Shown: positions 4,301 to 59,000 of the stretch, piece by piece
How the letters are laid out: every line of letters begins with the position of its first letter
Position numbering within the stretch: position 1 is the stretch's first letter
From: Eledone cirrhosa
Lineage: Eukaryota
Length of the DNA stretch: 64,000 nt
Assembly: GCA_964016885.1 (NCBI GenBank)
Contig: OZ024757.1
Location: 37,324,001-37,388,000 of the forward strand
Direction: 5' to 3'
Program-made: the position numbers and the translations under genes
The notes under the pieces: generated by a model
What the model was told of the DNA's origin: nothing
What the model saw: only the letters and a program-made list of their open reading frames with translations
The model's database searches: none

Positions 4301-7300
4301 TGAGAAAGAGATATAGAAGAAGAATCTACCCCAGTACATAACTGGTACTTTTTTTATCGACCTCAAAAGGATGAAAGAGAAGGTTGACCACAATGGGATT
4401 TGAACTCAGAGCAGAGAGCTGAAACAAATACTGCAAAGCATTCCATATGACATTCTAATGAATGCCTTACATATACATACACATGAAGGCACATGGCTTA
4501 GTGGTTAGAGCATTGGGGCTTGCAATCGAAAGGTTGTGAGTTCAATTCTTGGACTGGGTGATGTGTTGTTTCCTTGAGCAAGACACTTTATTTCACATTG
4601 CTCCAGTTTACTCAGCTGTAGAAATGAGATGATAGGGACTGGGGTCCATATCATTAAATCACCCAAGACACCTCCAACGAGATATACCTTGGAGGAGGCC
4701 GGCTAAACCTGTATAGGTGTGAGCTGTAACAACAACAACAACATATATATACACACACAAATATATACATACAAATTCCCTCACCTGTCTGTCCAGGATT
4801 ATAGATTGGTTTTGAAGTTTGGATAAAAATGTGACCAGCTGTCATTGAAACAGGAATTTCCTTTATCTGGGAAAACCCATTTGATTTGACTGACAGGATA
4901 ACAGTATGTTTCTCTTCTCCAGTATCCGATGAAGATCCCAAACGGTTTAAAAGATCCGACAATTTGATCTGCATTTCTACATATCTTGGTGAAGCTGAAA
5001 ATCGAGAATATATTTTTCATTGATATATATATATAAACCCATGCATGCATGCAAACATGGATGTAAAAGGATCATGGATATATATATATATATATGTATA
5101 TAAAAATATCATCATCATCATTTTACGTTTGCTTTTCCTTGCTTGCAAGGATGGGACGGGTCCTTTTCAGCATTTCTCCATTCGTCACGGTCCTTCGTCA
5201 TCTCATCTGTGAGCTTCAGTGATCTGAGGTCAGCTCTCACCACCTCCACCCATGATTTTGGTGGTCTTCCTCTACTGTGTCTTCCTTCCACTGGGATTTC
5301 TTGGTACTCCTTTACCCAGCGGTCATCCTAATATATATATAAATATATATAAGTAGTTCCACGACAGTTAATACACCATTTTCAAGAGCAATTTGTTTCA
5401 CCTTAAATGGATTATCTGCTGTTTCAGGTGAAACAAATTGTCTTGGAAATGGTGTACTAACTGTTGTGGAACTACTTCTACCAAACTCATCCCATGGACT
5501 GAGTGCTCTACTACTGCGGCTATAACACACCAGTGTTATACCACTATATATATATATATATATATATACATACATATATATATAAAAAAATGTGGGTAAT
5601 ATTAAATATTATCCAATTACAAGTATGAGAATATATATATATATATATATATATATATATATATATATAAATGTAATCTGAGTTTTTCGAATATTAGTAA
5701 TAATATTCGATTCGTTTGCAATTATGCAAACAAGCCTCATTTTTAAAGCCATGTCAGTAGAATGAGCCCCTCATTCTTGCTCTTGTGTTGGCATGTAAAC
5801 AGAACTGTAGTGATGAAGGGTGATACCCAGAAACATTAGTGTCTGCAGTTCTATTTACATGCCAACACAAGAGCAAGAATGAGGGGCTCATTCTACTGAC
5901 ATGGCTTTAAAAATGAGGCTTGTTTGCATAATTGCAAACGAATCGAATGTTATTATTAATATTCAAACAACTCAGATTACATTTATTGTATTCAGCCATG
6001 TAGAGTGATAATTTATATATATATATATATATATATATATATATATATATGTTCGGTAATTCCAAAGGAAAAGCAAAGGGAAAAAGAGTGCTCTATGTAT
6101 AGAACAGAGCTATTTAATTAGAAAGTAAACATCCAGACGTATATTATTATCGTCTGTGATCCAGAAACCTTTGGCAATGGAGTAGTTATATTTTGTGTTG
6201 TTCACTTTCTAATTAAATATATATATATATAAATATATATATATATATAAATATATATATAAATATATATATATATATATATATATGAATGAAGAATGGC
6301 GTGCTGCGTTGTTGCGAACATGAACATATGAATAAAAATAGACCAGGAGATAAAATGTCCTCATCAGTAGTCTGCTGATTATCATTGGTATTTCAATGCA
6401 TTAAAGACTACATACCTAAAATCAGTGCGAGTGATAACTCAATTAAGTTATCGGGACAGTGGGAAAACAGAGGGAAGGAAACAAACACATGGTAAAGAGA
6501 GGAAAATAGAGACAAGTCAATGAATACTGTGGGCTTATGTAAATCAGGATGGATTTAGTTTGAAACCTGTTAGACCATTACTTAACAGAGTACTCGATAC
6601 TTAGGGTAGTAAAGTATGGTTATAATATAAAGAGTTGAGACCCCGACAGCTGAGCTCTTGCTGTTGCAATAGAGGCAGGAGCTCTCATTATTTATGTCAA
6701 AGGCCTACTAATATAGTATAAAAAAGAAAAGACTTACATTTTGATGCATAAATTGTATTATCGTAAATGATGTTTCCATGAAGGGAATGTTCCAAGGTAA
6801 TACGAAAAGAGGTCTGAGAACGAGCTGTCAAAGGATTAATCAGTATGGTTTCCTTTTCATTACATCGGAATTTCTGTGGCGTCACAATGAGAACTTTCTG
6901 GGTTCTGCAGAAAAGAATAATATTCGGTGGATTGGCAGTATCGGTAGAGGGTCGGACGCCATGCTTTGAAGTATAGAGTTACGGCTCTTTATGGTCTTAA
7001 TTCAAATCCCGCCGAGGTTAACTTTGCCTTTCATCCTTACTGGGTTGATAAAATAAAGTACCAGTAATACACTGGTATTATTGCTGGCCTTGTGCCAAAA
7101 GTAGAAACAATTATTTTATAATCTATATCTATATATAAATTTGAGCACCTTCCATACGTCTGTCACACAATGTGTGTTTGTGTGAATGTATGTGTGTGTG
7201 TAAAAGGAAGGAAGGGGATGGCGAAAAAACTATATCAAAACAGCAGCTGGCATTCCATTTTCTATGCTGTGTGTGTGTGTTTGTGTGAATGTCTTTGTGT

Positions 7301-56000: not shown

Positions 56001-59000
56001 CCACAAAAATACAATAGTAAATATAGAGTAATGTGAATGTTAAAGGGTTAAACCAGCCATATCCGGCCAGAATTCTCTCACCTCTTTCTGTTCAAACTAG
56101 CTGTAACCGGCTGCTTGTATTGATGTTAAGGTATTGTTCTCAAAATAAATGATATCAAAATCTTGTAGATTCGATATTATGTGAGATAATTATGTAAGAT
56201 AAAGTCTTTACTGTGAAAATACAATAGTATATATATAGTAATGGAAATGCTAAAGATTTAAGTGGAGAGTAGAGGAGTGTCTTGGGTGTAGTTGTGTGTG
56301 TTGAAGGGAAGAATTTGGTAGATGTCAGTTGCTTCAGTCCGTGTCTACGCATACACACATATATATATCCTCTGTAGTCCTCTCTGGAGCAAGATGTGAC
56401 ATAGCCAATCATGACCAGACTTGCTTCCCCAGCCTGTCTAACCCATACAAGCATGGAAGAATTGACGCTAAACAGAAATGATGATGATATTATCTTGTGC
56501 TTTAAATTTCTCTTGCAGTTTACTGCTGATAATGGGTGGAAAAGTCTTGAAGATTTGTGACTTTGGTACTGCTTGTGATATTCAGACACATATGACAAAC
56601 AATAAAGGGAGTGCAGCTTGGATGGCACCTGAAGTTTTTGAAGGTAAAAACTGGAAAAAAATGTTTTATTGTATTTTCTTTTACAGCTCTACTGTGTGAA
56701 TCTGGGTCCTTTCTCTCCAAAAATATATAGATTTATTGTATATAAACATATTATATATGTTTACATATGTCATATGTCTTCATATACATCTCTGTTATGC
56801 TTAAATGGATTCTTGCGTGGAGGTGCCATGGCAAAAAAGCACCCAGTACTCACTGTAAATGAAGTTGTTGTTAGGAAGGGCATCCAGCTGTAGAAATCAA
56901 GCTAGAATCAGTTCCCGTATGAGACGACACAAGGTCAGCCAACTGGACACTGTCCACAACGGGACAACCCGCCTAACCCATGCTAGCGTGGAAGAACAGA
57001 CGTAAAACGGCAATGATGATGATATATATAATATGGAAAATGAAGAATCAGTGATGCATCAGAACACAAATTTATTACGTATTACAAATGTTTCTCCGGC
57101 TAACAGCTTGAGGTGCGATCTGTTTGTGGATCAAACCTGACTCTGGATTCGCAAGTTCCTCAGATACGTCTAGTGATTTCGAAGCAAATCCTCTGAGGAA
57201 CTTGCGAATCCAGATTTAGGTTCGATCCACAAACAAATCGCCTCTCGAGCTGTTCGCTGGAGAAACATTTGTAATACGTAATAAATTTGTGTTCCGATGC
57301 ATCACTGATTCTTTGTTTTCCATATTATCATACTCTGCTCTGTAGGAGCATAGAGTGCTCAACCGGCATACCACCTATGGAAGCATCCAAGCAACCTTAC
57401 CACAAATACATATATATATATACTGAGAATTCTAAAGAGGTGATCTTGCTGACTACATCAACAATAGACAGTTAGCAATATATTATGTATGAAGCTGTAT
57501 TTTTCTCCTCTAACTAGACTTTGTTTAGCAGCTGAAAGACATTAACCCATACCCCTCCTCTGCAACCTTTGCATAGTGTCAAGCTGGGAGGTAGTGGTGG
57601 GTGGTGTCATTTTGATTATATATATATATATATTTTTTTTTTTACTTGTTTTCCTGTATTAGTTTCCTCTTTGCTTCATTCTTGAATGTCTGTTTAGAAT
57701 TTTATATTTTAGACTCACTCTCTCTCTCTCTCTCTCTCTCTCTCTCTCTCTCTCTCTCTCTCTCTCTCTCTCTGTTTCTACACCCCTCTCTCCTCTCATC
57801 ATAACCATTTTTCCCTGCATTCATATATATATATGAAAAGAGTCATATATATATTTATGCATTCACATATGTGTATATATGTGTATGTATATATATTTGT
57901 GTGTGTATGTATAGATATGTATGTGTATATATATATGTATGTGTATATATATATGTATGTATATATATATATATATATATGTATATATATATATATATAT
58001 ATGTGTGTATGTATATATATATATGTATATATATATCTATATATATCTATATATATATATGTATCTATATATATATATATGTATCTATATATAGTTATAC
58101 ATACGTGCATATATATATATATATATATATATATATATATATATATAGTTATACATACACGTTCATATATATGTATATATACATATATATGTATATATAT
58201 ATATATATATATATATATATATATATACATATACATACACACACATATATACACACACACACGTGTCAATGACATTGCCCTTTTGTTGTGAGAAAAAAGA
58301 AATACCCATAAGAAAAGGACAAAAACGATCATCAACATTGTTGTTATTACTATTATTATTATTATTATTATTATTATTATTATTATTACTATTATTATTA
58401 TTAATACTCTTTGAGTCTCAGTCATTGATGTTAGTTAACTGGAAAGTCCGTTGGAATGAATATCAAGCCACTACCTGCAGCCTCAGATATTCAGGACGTA
58501 TCGGAGGGTTCTTGCTGTTCCCAGCAAGCATGCCTTTTGAAGCGTTCTAAAAAGCGTGAATTATTATTATTATTACTATTATTATTATTATTATTACTAT
58601 TACTATTATTACCATTATTATTGTTATTGTTATTCCTTGAATCTCAGTCATTGATGTTGGTTAACTGGAAAGTCCGTTGGATTGAATATCAAGCCACTAC
58701 CTGCAGCCTCAGATATTCAGGACGTATCGGAGGGTTCTTGCCGTTCCAAGCAAGCATGCCTTTTGAAGCGTTCCAAAAAGCGTTATCATTATTATTACTA
58801 TTATTATTATTATTATTATTACTATTACTATTATTATTATTATTACCAACAAATACTAGAAAAGCGAAAACAAAAGTGAAAAAGTATTAGAATTGATTTG
58901 ATTATGAGAACAAGAGCAAGATGAAGATGTTTGTGGTTTTTCAATGAAGAATTTTGGTAAATTGTTCCACTGTAACAACTGGCTGTTGGAGACAAAATAT

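Follow-up and report, generated by a model that had tools for sequence, protein, structure and literature searches.

The stretch analyzed here, a 64,000-nucleotide (nt) window of the Eledone cirrhosa genome (assembly GCA_964016885.1, contig OZ024757.1, positions 37,324,001 to 37,388,000; coordinates below count from the first base of the window), is animal DNA rich in microsatellites, with a guanine-plus-cytosine content of 37.5%. Using Pfam, exons of ANAPC2 were identified on the minus strand and protein kinase exons on the plus strand. The window also contains ten long palindromes associated with hammerhead ribozyme motifs, which we infer to be 5'-truncated, hammerhead-bearing ends of Penelope-like elements (PLEs) placed head to head in (TA)n microsatellites.

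All ten palindromes were found where a sequence-only reading of the window had placed them, with arms of 47 to 190 bp sharing 87 to 100% identity. A scan for terminal inverted repeats anchored on (TA)n recovered the ten together with three short-armed extras (6114-6216, 23968-24084, and 54210-54371). The palindromes fall in eight unrelated families (A to H), and a ninth family (I) has a short inverted arm. Every complete insert has the order (TA)n, tail, arm, loop, arm, (TA)n, in which the tail, 63 to 137 nt long, prolongs one arm only. This anatomy supports the earlier assignment to PLE-type inverted insertions; that reading was right about the palindromes but overlooked the one-sided tail, and it implied one breakpoint per palindrome where each has two. 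Fourteen inserts were counted (A1, A2, B, C, D1, D2, E1, E2, F, G1, G2, G3, H, and I). Left out before counting were E3 and G4, which have no partner arm, a hammerhead at 61570-61849 with neither terminal inversion nor tail, an element at 23967-24168 in which no hammerhead was seen, and the end of a tandem array at 30445-30499. In the following list, C3 is the first nucleotide of the CUGANGA motif.

5351-5421, minus strand: A1, tailless long arm and 14-nt loop with a decayed CUGANGA core, abutting (TA)n; loop oriented by alignment to A2
5422-5544, plus strand: A1, short arm (5422-5477, from helix II) and 67-nt tail (5478-5544), then (TA)n; tail contiguous in other genomic copies
5667-5810, minus strand: B, short tailless arm starting at the GUC cleavage nucleotide
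5811-6013, plus strand: B, loop with core (5811-5842), long arm (5843-5986), and probable 27-nt tail (5987-6013) without a second copy
6051-6216: D2, inverted tail (6051-6113), 18-nt inverted arm, and 85-nt direct arm from helix II, with (TA)n on both sides
6561-6672, minus strand: E3, tail and arm to about GAAA, no clear partner arm (outside the counts)
10363-10468: G3, inverted part-tail joined to a 53-nt direct arm whose start lies about 3 nt ahead of the cleavage site; the two parts do not overlap and form no palindrome
15620-15742, minus strand: G4, whole tail and 30 nt of arm, without a partner (outside the counts)
22771-22910: C, short arm (22771-22817, minus strand), loop of GAAGA and helix II, long arm (22835-22881, plus strand), and possible tail (22882-22910)
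22982-23258: D1, tail (22982-23047) and arms (23048-23152 and 23154-23258) with a 1-nt loop 10 to 11 nt 5' of CUGAUGA (23164)
23298-23490: E1, tail (23298-23374) and arms (23375-23429 and 23436-23490), turning at the presumed helix II
33736-34096, minus strand: F, tailless long arm with the whole hammerhead (C3 33940, GAAA 33817, NUH 33806) and 156 nt upstream
34097-34423, plus strand: F, short arm (34097-34286, from 15 nt after C3) and 137-nt tail followed by (TA)n; the tail has no second copy and was assigned from where it lies and from the ACTC hairpin with which it opens
39746-39945: E2, arms (39746-39806 and 39807-39867) with no loop, and tail (39868-39945)
41860-42130: G1, short arm (41860-41950; cut, tail not visible), loop (41951-41982), and long tailless arm to 42130
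53548-53944: G2, tail (53548-53633), short arm (53634-53768), loop (53769-53810), and long tailless arm (53811-53944); core with C3 53853, GAAA 53885, and NUH 53896; loop homologous to that of G1 and collinear with the right arm in another genomic copy
53969-54090: A2, 67-nt arm that includes the whole minimal hammerhead and stops at the 5' edge of stem I, joined to an inverted part-tail only
54110-54371: I, inverted tail (54110-54209), 23-nt inverted arm, and 139-nt direct arm that starts 48 nt 5' of CUGAUGA (54281)
57029-57409: H, tailless long arm and loop (57029-57191, minus strand; C3 57163), short arm (57192-57327) starting 1 nt before C3, and tail (57328-57409)

The outer ends of the inserts are constant within families: 12 of 13 tail ends adjoin a TA run, and all 14 tailless ends lie within 1 nt of one. 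As (TA)n is present at both ends, any target-site duplication is unreadable in such a microsatellite. Tails are common to the copies of a family (A1/A2, D1/D2, E1/E2/E3, and G2/G3/G4), at 75 to 90% likeness. Four public sequencing runs (X1, X4, X5, and X8, of which X5 is from another organism) were aligned to 53769-54400; their depths are not copy counts, as reads from restriction site-associated DNA (RAD) libraries stack, and RAD-library end pileups were not used. Uninterrupted passage from the element end into the family A tail was seen in X1 (64 contigs), X8 (989 reads), X4 (6 contigs), and X5 (100 contigs). The junctions, in contrast to the outer ends, vary between copies of one family (A1/A2, D1/D2, E1/E2, and G1/G2/G3), and loops are no longer than 42 nt in nine of the ten palindromes. 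The left arm of the palindrome at 41860 has been shortened by an adjoining repeat that ends in (ATG)n. Arms within a palindrome share 87 to 100% identity, whereas the figure between A1/A2, D1/D2, E1/E2, and G1/G2 is 66 to 83%. Because the two arms are closer to each other than to sister copies, they share a source, and it is likely that each junction was made at insertion from one source sequence. Eight differences between the arms of E2 are packed into about 17 nt (39769-39785), where one of the two arms is near the family form; this cluster is a candidate repair patch or second template.

If a cDNA (complementary DNA) had snapped back and copied itself, one arm would have to be a subset of the other, because a folding cDNA copies only what it holds. 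In 8 of the 10 informative inserts (A1, F, G2, H, D2, I, A2, and G3), the loop continues the tailless arm and the tail is on the other arm, loop orientation in A1, F, G2, and H being established by alignment to A2, by stem I pairing, and by G1 together with the collinear contig. The inverted arms of D2 and I are 18 and 23 nt, and in A2 and G3 only part of the tail is inverted, with zero overlap. The subset test therefore fails in these eight inserts, where neither arm is contained in the other, and passes in B and C. Snap-back of the element on its own cDNA, which the sequence-only reading had put forward as the general mechanism, would thus be contradicted by the topology unless later deletions intervened.

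Using a type I hammerhead descriptor, eight hits were found in the window, compared to a mean of 0.03 in 30 local shuffles. Three palindromes accounted for four hits (one each in 33740 and 57029 and two in 53634), two hits were in related inserts (54030 and 54281), one was in a different element (61690), and that at 35172 looks like a chance match; the 54281 hit (family I) used a distant GAAA, and the near fold was identified by eye. Whole motifs, which are predicted ribozymes, were found by the descriptor in A2, F, G2, and H. The hammerheads of A1, B, C, D, E, and G1 are partial or decayed, and D1 (23048) failed the descriptor. Cores are mutated or cut at 5351, 5667, and 22771 and in one arm of 41860, with 22771 also having no canonical stem III; 23376 and 39744 lack CUGANGA entirely, the parts present there being GAAA, stem III, NUH, and the 3' strand of stem I. 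Against the Rfam model Hammerhead_1 (RF00163), the best score in the 53500-57500 region scanned was 22.6 bits (53994-54036), below the gathering score of 34, and in a whole-window scan no hammerhead was among the best 150 of 224 Rfam matches. The Rfam microRNA matches in the window were rejected as by-products of hairpins and microsatellites. Motif patterns for families G, E, and A had no match in viral contig or genome contig collections, and a single metagenome match (L001) was dismissed as a chance hit in a bacterial-looking gene.

Several further features of the ribozymes were observed. In family F, helix II spans about 115 nt and folds into a long stem (33806-33940, minus strand; fold z-score, -5.3), far longer than the 7 to 8 bp of minimal PLE hammerheads. 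At 61640-61750 (plus strand), a canonical-looking type I hammerhead (C3 61690) with a 16-bp stem I extension (z-score, -4.2) lies between TA runs without terminal inversion or tail and is possibly a retrozyme-like unit. In families G and I, a splice-donor-like G/GTATGT is present about 25 to 40 nt before CUGAUGA (41990-42000, 53815-53825, and 54250-54262), and several tails begin after a pyrimidine-rich stretch ending in AG; the hammerhead may be situated inside the intron of the 5' untranslated region that is known from Penelope. The tails of six otherwise unrelated families open with a bulged hairpin (RCTC-stem-loop-stem-GAGYRCTC) 4 to 10 nt after the element end (in the tails at 5478-5544, 22982-23047, 6051-6113, 23298-23374, 39868-39945, 15620-15712, 57328-57409, and 54110-54209). 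A search for this pattern gave 15 hits compared to a shuffle mean of 7.25 (maximum, 15), the pattern having been derived from these tails and so not being independent of them; fold z-scores of the tails ranged from -3.7 to +0.45. The hairpin is a candidate binding or start signal for reverse transcriptase (RT).

The observed anatomy, arm and tail topology, fixed outer ends, and variable junctions suggest that these inserts were probably, if far from certainly, built from two separately primed cDNAs of one RNA joined head to head. Published in vitro work on a PLE enzyme (PMC11167929) showed that it cuts the two strands of its target and extends each of them, with reverse transcription beginning at two positions, one on either side of the tail; the RNA inserted is mainly uncleaved, and the enzyme is predicted to form a dimer. 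On this background, twin priming is the simplest reading. The PLE enzyme would prime on both strands of a cut (TA)n target, with a single uncleaved RNA as template and the two known start sites in use. Of the two cDNAs, that begun at the end of the pseudo-long terminal repeat (pLTR) would give the tailless arm, and that begun at the tail end would give the tailed arm. Entry into the pLTR would require the tail-primed cDNA to displace its partner, so that its arm would usually be shorter and would sometimes stop within the tail; the tail-bearing arm is the shorter in 8 of 10 inserts, and it stops within the tail or the first 23 nt beyond it in 4 of 14. The ends of both cDNAs would tend to fall between helix II and a point some tens of bases 5' of the core, likely because of the folded ribozyme and a nearby RNA 5' end, and the two cDNAs would then be joined end to end. 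Complementary helix ends may guide the join at 5667, 23376, and 39744. Pairing between two cDNAs of like sense requires self-complementary stretches in the RNA, so helix-centered junctions are expected under twin priming and snap-back alike. Helix-guided joining is plausible only for B (stem I) and for E1 and E2 (helix II, if that hairpin is natural) and is not evident in F, G, or H.

A number of points weigh against this interpretation. In B and C, the loop and a probable short tail are on the same arm, which fits snap-back, and the split of eight inserts to two is not significant (P = 0.11, two-sided). D1, E1, and E2, with loops of 0 to 6 nt, are uninformative, as is G1, in which the tail is hidden. 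Later one-sided deletion in a once-perfect palindrome could mimic the topology, and gene conversion could likewise equalize the arms. The tails of F and H have no second copy in the window, and tails of 63 to 137 nt are longer than the published 30 to 40 nt. G1 and G3 are 96% alike over the last 53 nt, and the contrast between within-palindrome and between-copy identity is therefore not universal. At the G2 junction (53634), no strand-change joint was present among the 15 listed of 21 joints. Pfam found no RT or GIY-YIG frame among the 84 window frames of at least 75 amino acids; the PLE assignment consequently rests on the anatomy, and the missing open reading frame (ORF) is expected for stumps.

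The position of the junctions relative to the ribozyme was then expressed as distance from C3 for the long and short arms, respectively: -2 and +13 at 5351, +1 and +33 at 5667, +2 and +19 at 22771, -11 and -10 at 23048, -156 and +15 at 33740, -80 and -48 at 41860, -84 and -42 at 53634, and -28 and -1 at 57029. The long arms of A2 and I end at -5 and -48, D2 begins in helix II, and G3 begins about at the cleavage site. Breakpoint statistics were based on 10 of the 14 inserts (E1, E2, D2, and G3 being left out for lack of CUGANGA), and the rank correlation was based on seven palindromes, one per family. The claim that the junctions turn in or beside the hammerhead held in part. They are nearer the 5' half than a loose null predicts, but significance fades under strict ascertainment; of the 171-nt loop at 33740, about 150 nt are upstream of the ribozyme, and at 23376 and 39744 the turn at helix II is presumed. 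The wording itself largely reflects geometry, because the ribozyme fills much of the 50- to 200-nt arms. A tendency to stop around the ribozyme 5' half is modest and real-looking, and geometry, RNA folding, and a nearby RNA start may each be a cause of this zone. The cleaved RNA end, also proposed as a cause, did not account for the breakpoints: one lies within about 3 nt of NUH in only 2 of the 14 inserts (the B short arm and G3), and 13 of the 14 long arms continue well beyond that site. Cleavage run-off was accordingly rejected as a general cause.

That the ribozyme is a bystander, the cDNAs running off the RNA 5' end (the pLTR start site) at a family-specific distance upstream of the core, is a possible though doubtful account; it addresses where the cDNAs stop and is compatible with twin priming. 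The long arms of G1 and G2 stop at -80 and -84 in homologous sequence, family G depth in X8 falls from 857 to 127 to 17 over the 40 to 60 nt upstream of C3, steeply from 20 to 60 nt, and the start site of Penelope and Chlamys lies in the pLTR (PMC8557442, in the parts covered). The depth drop may be truncation but may instead reflect subfamily divergence, and RAD reads stack. Close to the core, moreover, the ends are spread over positions -11 to about +12, several of them inside the ribozyme. Copies of families A and I also run on upstream: continuation past stem I was found in family A in 30 contigs of X1 and 867 reads of X8, and family I kept 179 of a depth of 289 at 30 to 50 nt upstream of C3, with 17 contigs extending further. 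An initiator-like TCACT is present about 13 nt before C3 in H (57172-57176, minus strand) and about 65 to 80 nt before it in G (53787-53791 and 41949-41953), the long arm of G1 beginning inside the latter; TCACT likewise occurs in Adineta pLTRs (PMC3846280, as far as covered), and the motif in H and G is a lead for an RNA start. At the H junction, 8 nt (57184-57191) nearly repeat a stretch 11 to 18 nt after C3 and may be a templated insertion or mark an alternative pairing.

It is rather unlikely that geometry and ascertainment suffice, the insertions being short, the ribozyme filling most of their last 50 to 200 nt, and the inserts being recognized by the ribozyme. When the long arm was required to hold the core, which left 36 to 54 valid permutations, P values were 0.33 to 1.0 for counts and 0.03 to 0.15 for mean log distance, and an exponential null with a mean of 30 nt gave P values of 0.20 to 0.28; 5 of 14 long arms stop 28 to 156 nt upstream of the core. 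On the other side, short-arm length tracks the family distance to C3 (Spearman coefficient, 0.96; P = 0.0005; n = 7). Loose permutation among families gave P values of 0.0006 to 0.003 for mean log distance (0.03 to 0.16 for counts), and exponential nulls gave about 0.05 at a mean of 60 nt and 0.015 at 100 nt, ranging from 0.057 to 0.002 across 60 to 200 nt. Moreover, short arms never stop in the interval from 24 nt to the cleavage site; B, with 144 nt of room, is no exception.

Less probable still is that one cDNA snapped back at a ribozyme helix and copied itself, with an endonuclease or a second primer fixing the tailless end. Self-priming at palindromic inverted PLE junctions has been proposed (PMC3846280, in the parts covered). 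The loop of B is exactly the core enclosed by stem I, with loop and probable tail on one arm, E1 and E2 turn at the apex of a 12- to 15-bp hairpin next to GAAA, and the small size of nine of the ten loops favors such folding. Snap-back may account for some inserts, namely those at 5667 (stem I), 23376 and 39744 (helix II), 22771, and 23048. In the eight inserts described above, however, it is impossible without later deletion; the F join links +15 to -156, ignoring the very long helix II, G1 and G2 turn 42 to 84 nt outside the ribozyme, and no E copy with CUGANGA was found to show that the hairpin is a natural helix II. Chimeras of assembly or whole-genome amplification are most improbable, because a chimera would copy flanks blindly and exactly, whereas divergence between the arms reaches 13%, their ends sit against (TA)n at positions constant within each family, and a one-sided tail is shared between loci. 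In favor of chimeras, the 15 listed of 21 joints in the runs over 53769-54400 included none that changes strand at the 53634 junction; the two opposite-strand joints among them were family I tail-to-end links.

Twin priming could be taken further, in that a PLE dimer would prime both ends of a (TA)n break and the hammerhead 5' half would act as brake and joining surface for the two cDNAs, so that the ribozyme fold, and not cleavage, would set palindrome size and center. We regard this extension as speculative and rather improbable. If it is true, poorly cleaving minimal hammerheads gain a structural role, and if junctions peak at ribozyme helices genome-wide, the hammerhead has a noncatalytic role in integration. 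The topology test is applicable to thousands of copies in any assembled genome and ties the two in vitro start sites to a genomic structure.

Elsewhere in the window, the most upstream frame inferred as ANAPC2 is at 22196-22786 and has no Pfam match; the family C insert sits just upstream. Frames resembling exons of a macroglobulin-type gene are present at 1259-5016 on the minus strand (weak MG3 match; E value, 0.002). About 10 copies of a 48-bp tandem unit occupy 30000-30499, the array ending in a further, perfect 26-bp palindrome (30445-30499) that is built from its own unit and has no CUGANGA. A TA-flanked element found at 23967-24168 and 62689-62842 has a 17-nt inverted arm, a one-sided extension, and a perfect 20-bp palindrome near the junction, with no hammerhead core seen.

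Several known systems are comparable to these inserts. The animal non-LTR (non-long terminal repeat) retrozymes (bioRxiv 10.64898/2026.07.22.740005, in the parts covered) are likewise short and noncoding, with type I hammerheads, and are related to PLE ends, but they form tandem direct repeats with a hammerhead in each unit, whereas the inserts here are dispersed single inverted pairs with tails. Minimal type I hammerheads (Cervera and de la Pena 2014, PMC4209133, as covered) share CUGANGA, GAAA, an extra base at the helix II foot, a short stem III with a palindromic loop, and opposite-strand motif pairs 100 to 700 bp apart; different from that minimal form are helix II, here from 2 to 3 bp up to the roughly 115-nt arm of F, and the long stem III of family E. 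Poseidon of Anolis carolinensis in vitro (Frangieh et al. 2024, PMC11167929) is similar in its two RT starts bracketing the tail and its AT-rich target; its hammerhead is about 85 to 90 nt upstream of the start sites, cleavage is not needed for insertion, and the parts of that report covered do not treat how inverted junctions form or at which positions they lie.

Among papers considered by title and abstract opening, with most subscription papers outside that scope, none mapped PLE inversion breakpoints on the hammerhead or described PLE twin priming. In LINE-1 twin priming, both target strands are said to prime on one RNA, giving an inverted 5' segment with microhomology at the join (reportedly described by Ostertag and Kazazian in 2001). 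The LINE-1 segments reportedly do not overlap and the second primer lands at varying sites, whereas in the present inserts the two starting points are constant and the overlap of the segments yields palindromes.

The closest likeness is to endonuclease-bearing PLEs (PMC3846280; PMC8557442, both as far as covered), which show a head-to-head 5'-truncated inverted copy, a palindromic junction, a one-sided tail, a (TA)n target, and a hammerhead in the pLTR. Published PLE insertions have tails of 30 to 40 nt (Arkhipova et al. 2013; Craig et al. 2021, in the parts covered), compared to 63 to 137 nt here on stumps without an ORF. The explanation given there is self-priming at the junction with endonuclease resolution of the tail; the sequence-only reading was not aware of a description, at this resolution, of a ribozyme-programmed mechanism forming palindromes, but self-priming at palindromic PLE junctions had already been proposed (PMC3846280), and the formation of the inverted repeats and one-sided tail has been named an open question (PMC8557442). 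The topology here points instead to two primed cDNAs. The overall architecture is already published and the arm and tail topology is new, making the result a small-sample refinement of a known architecture that comes with a testable mechanism.

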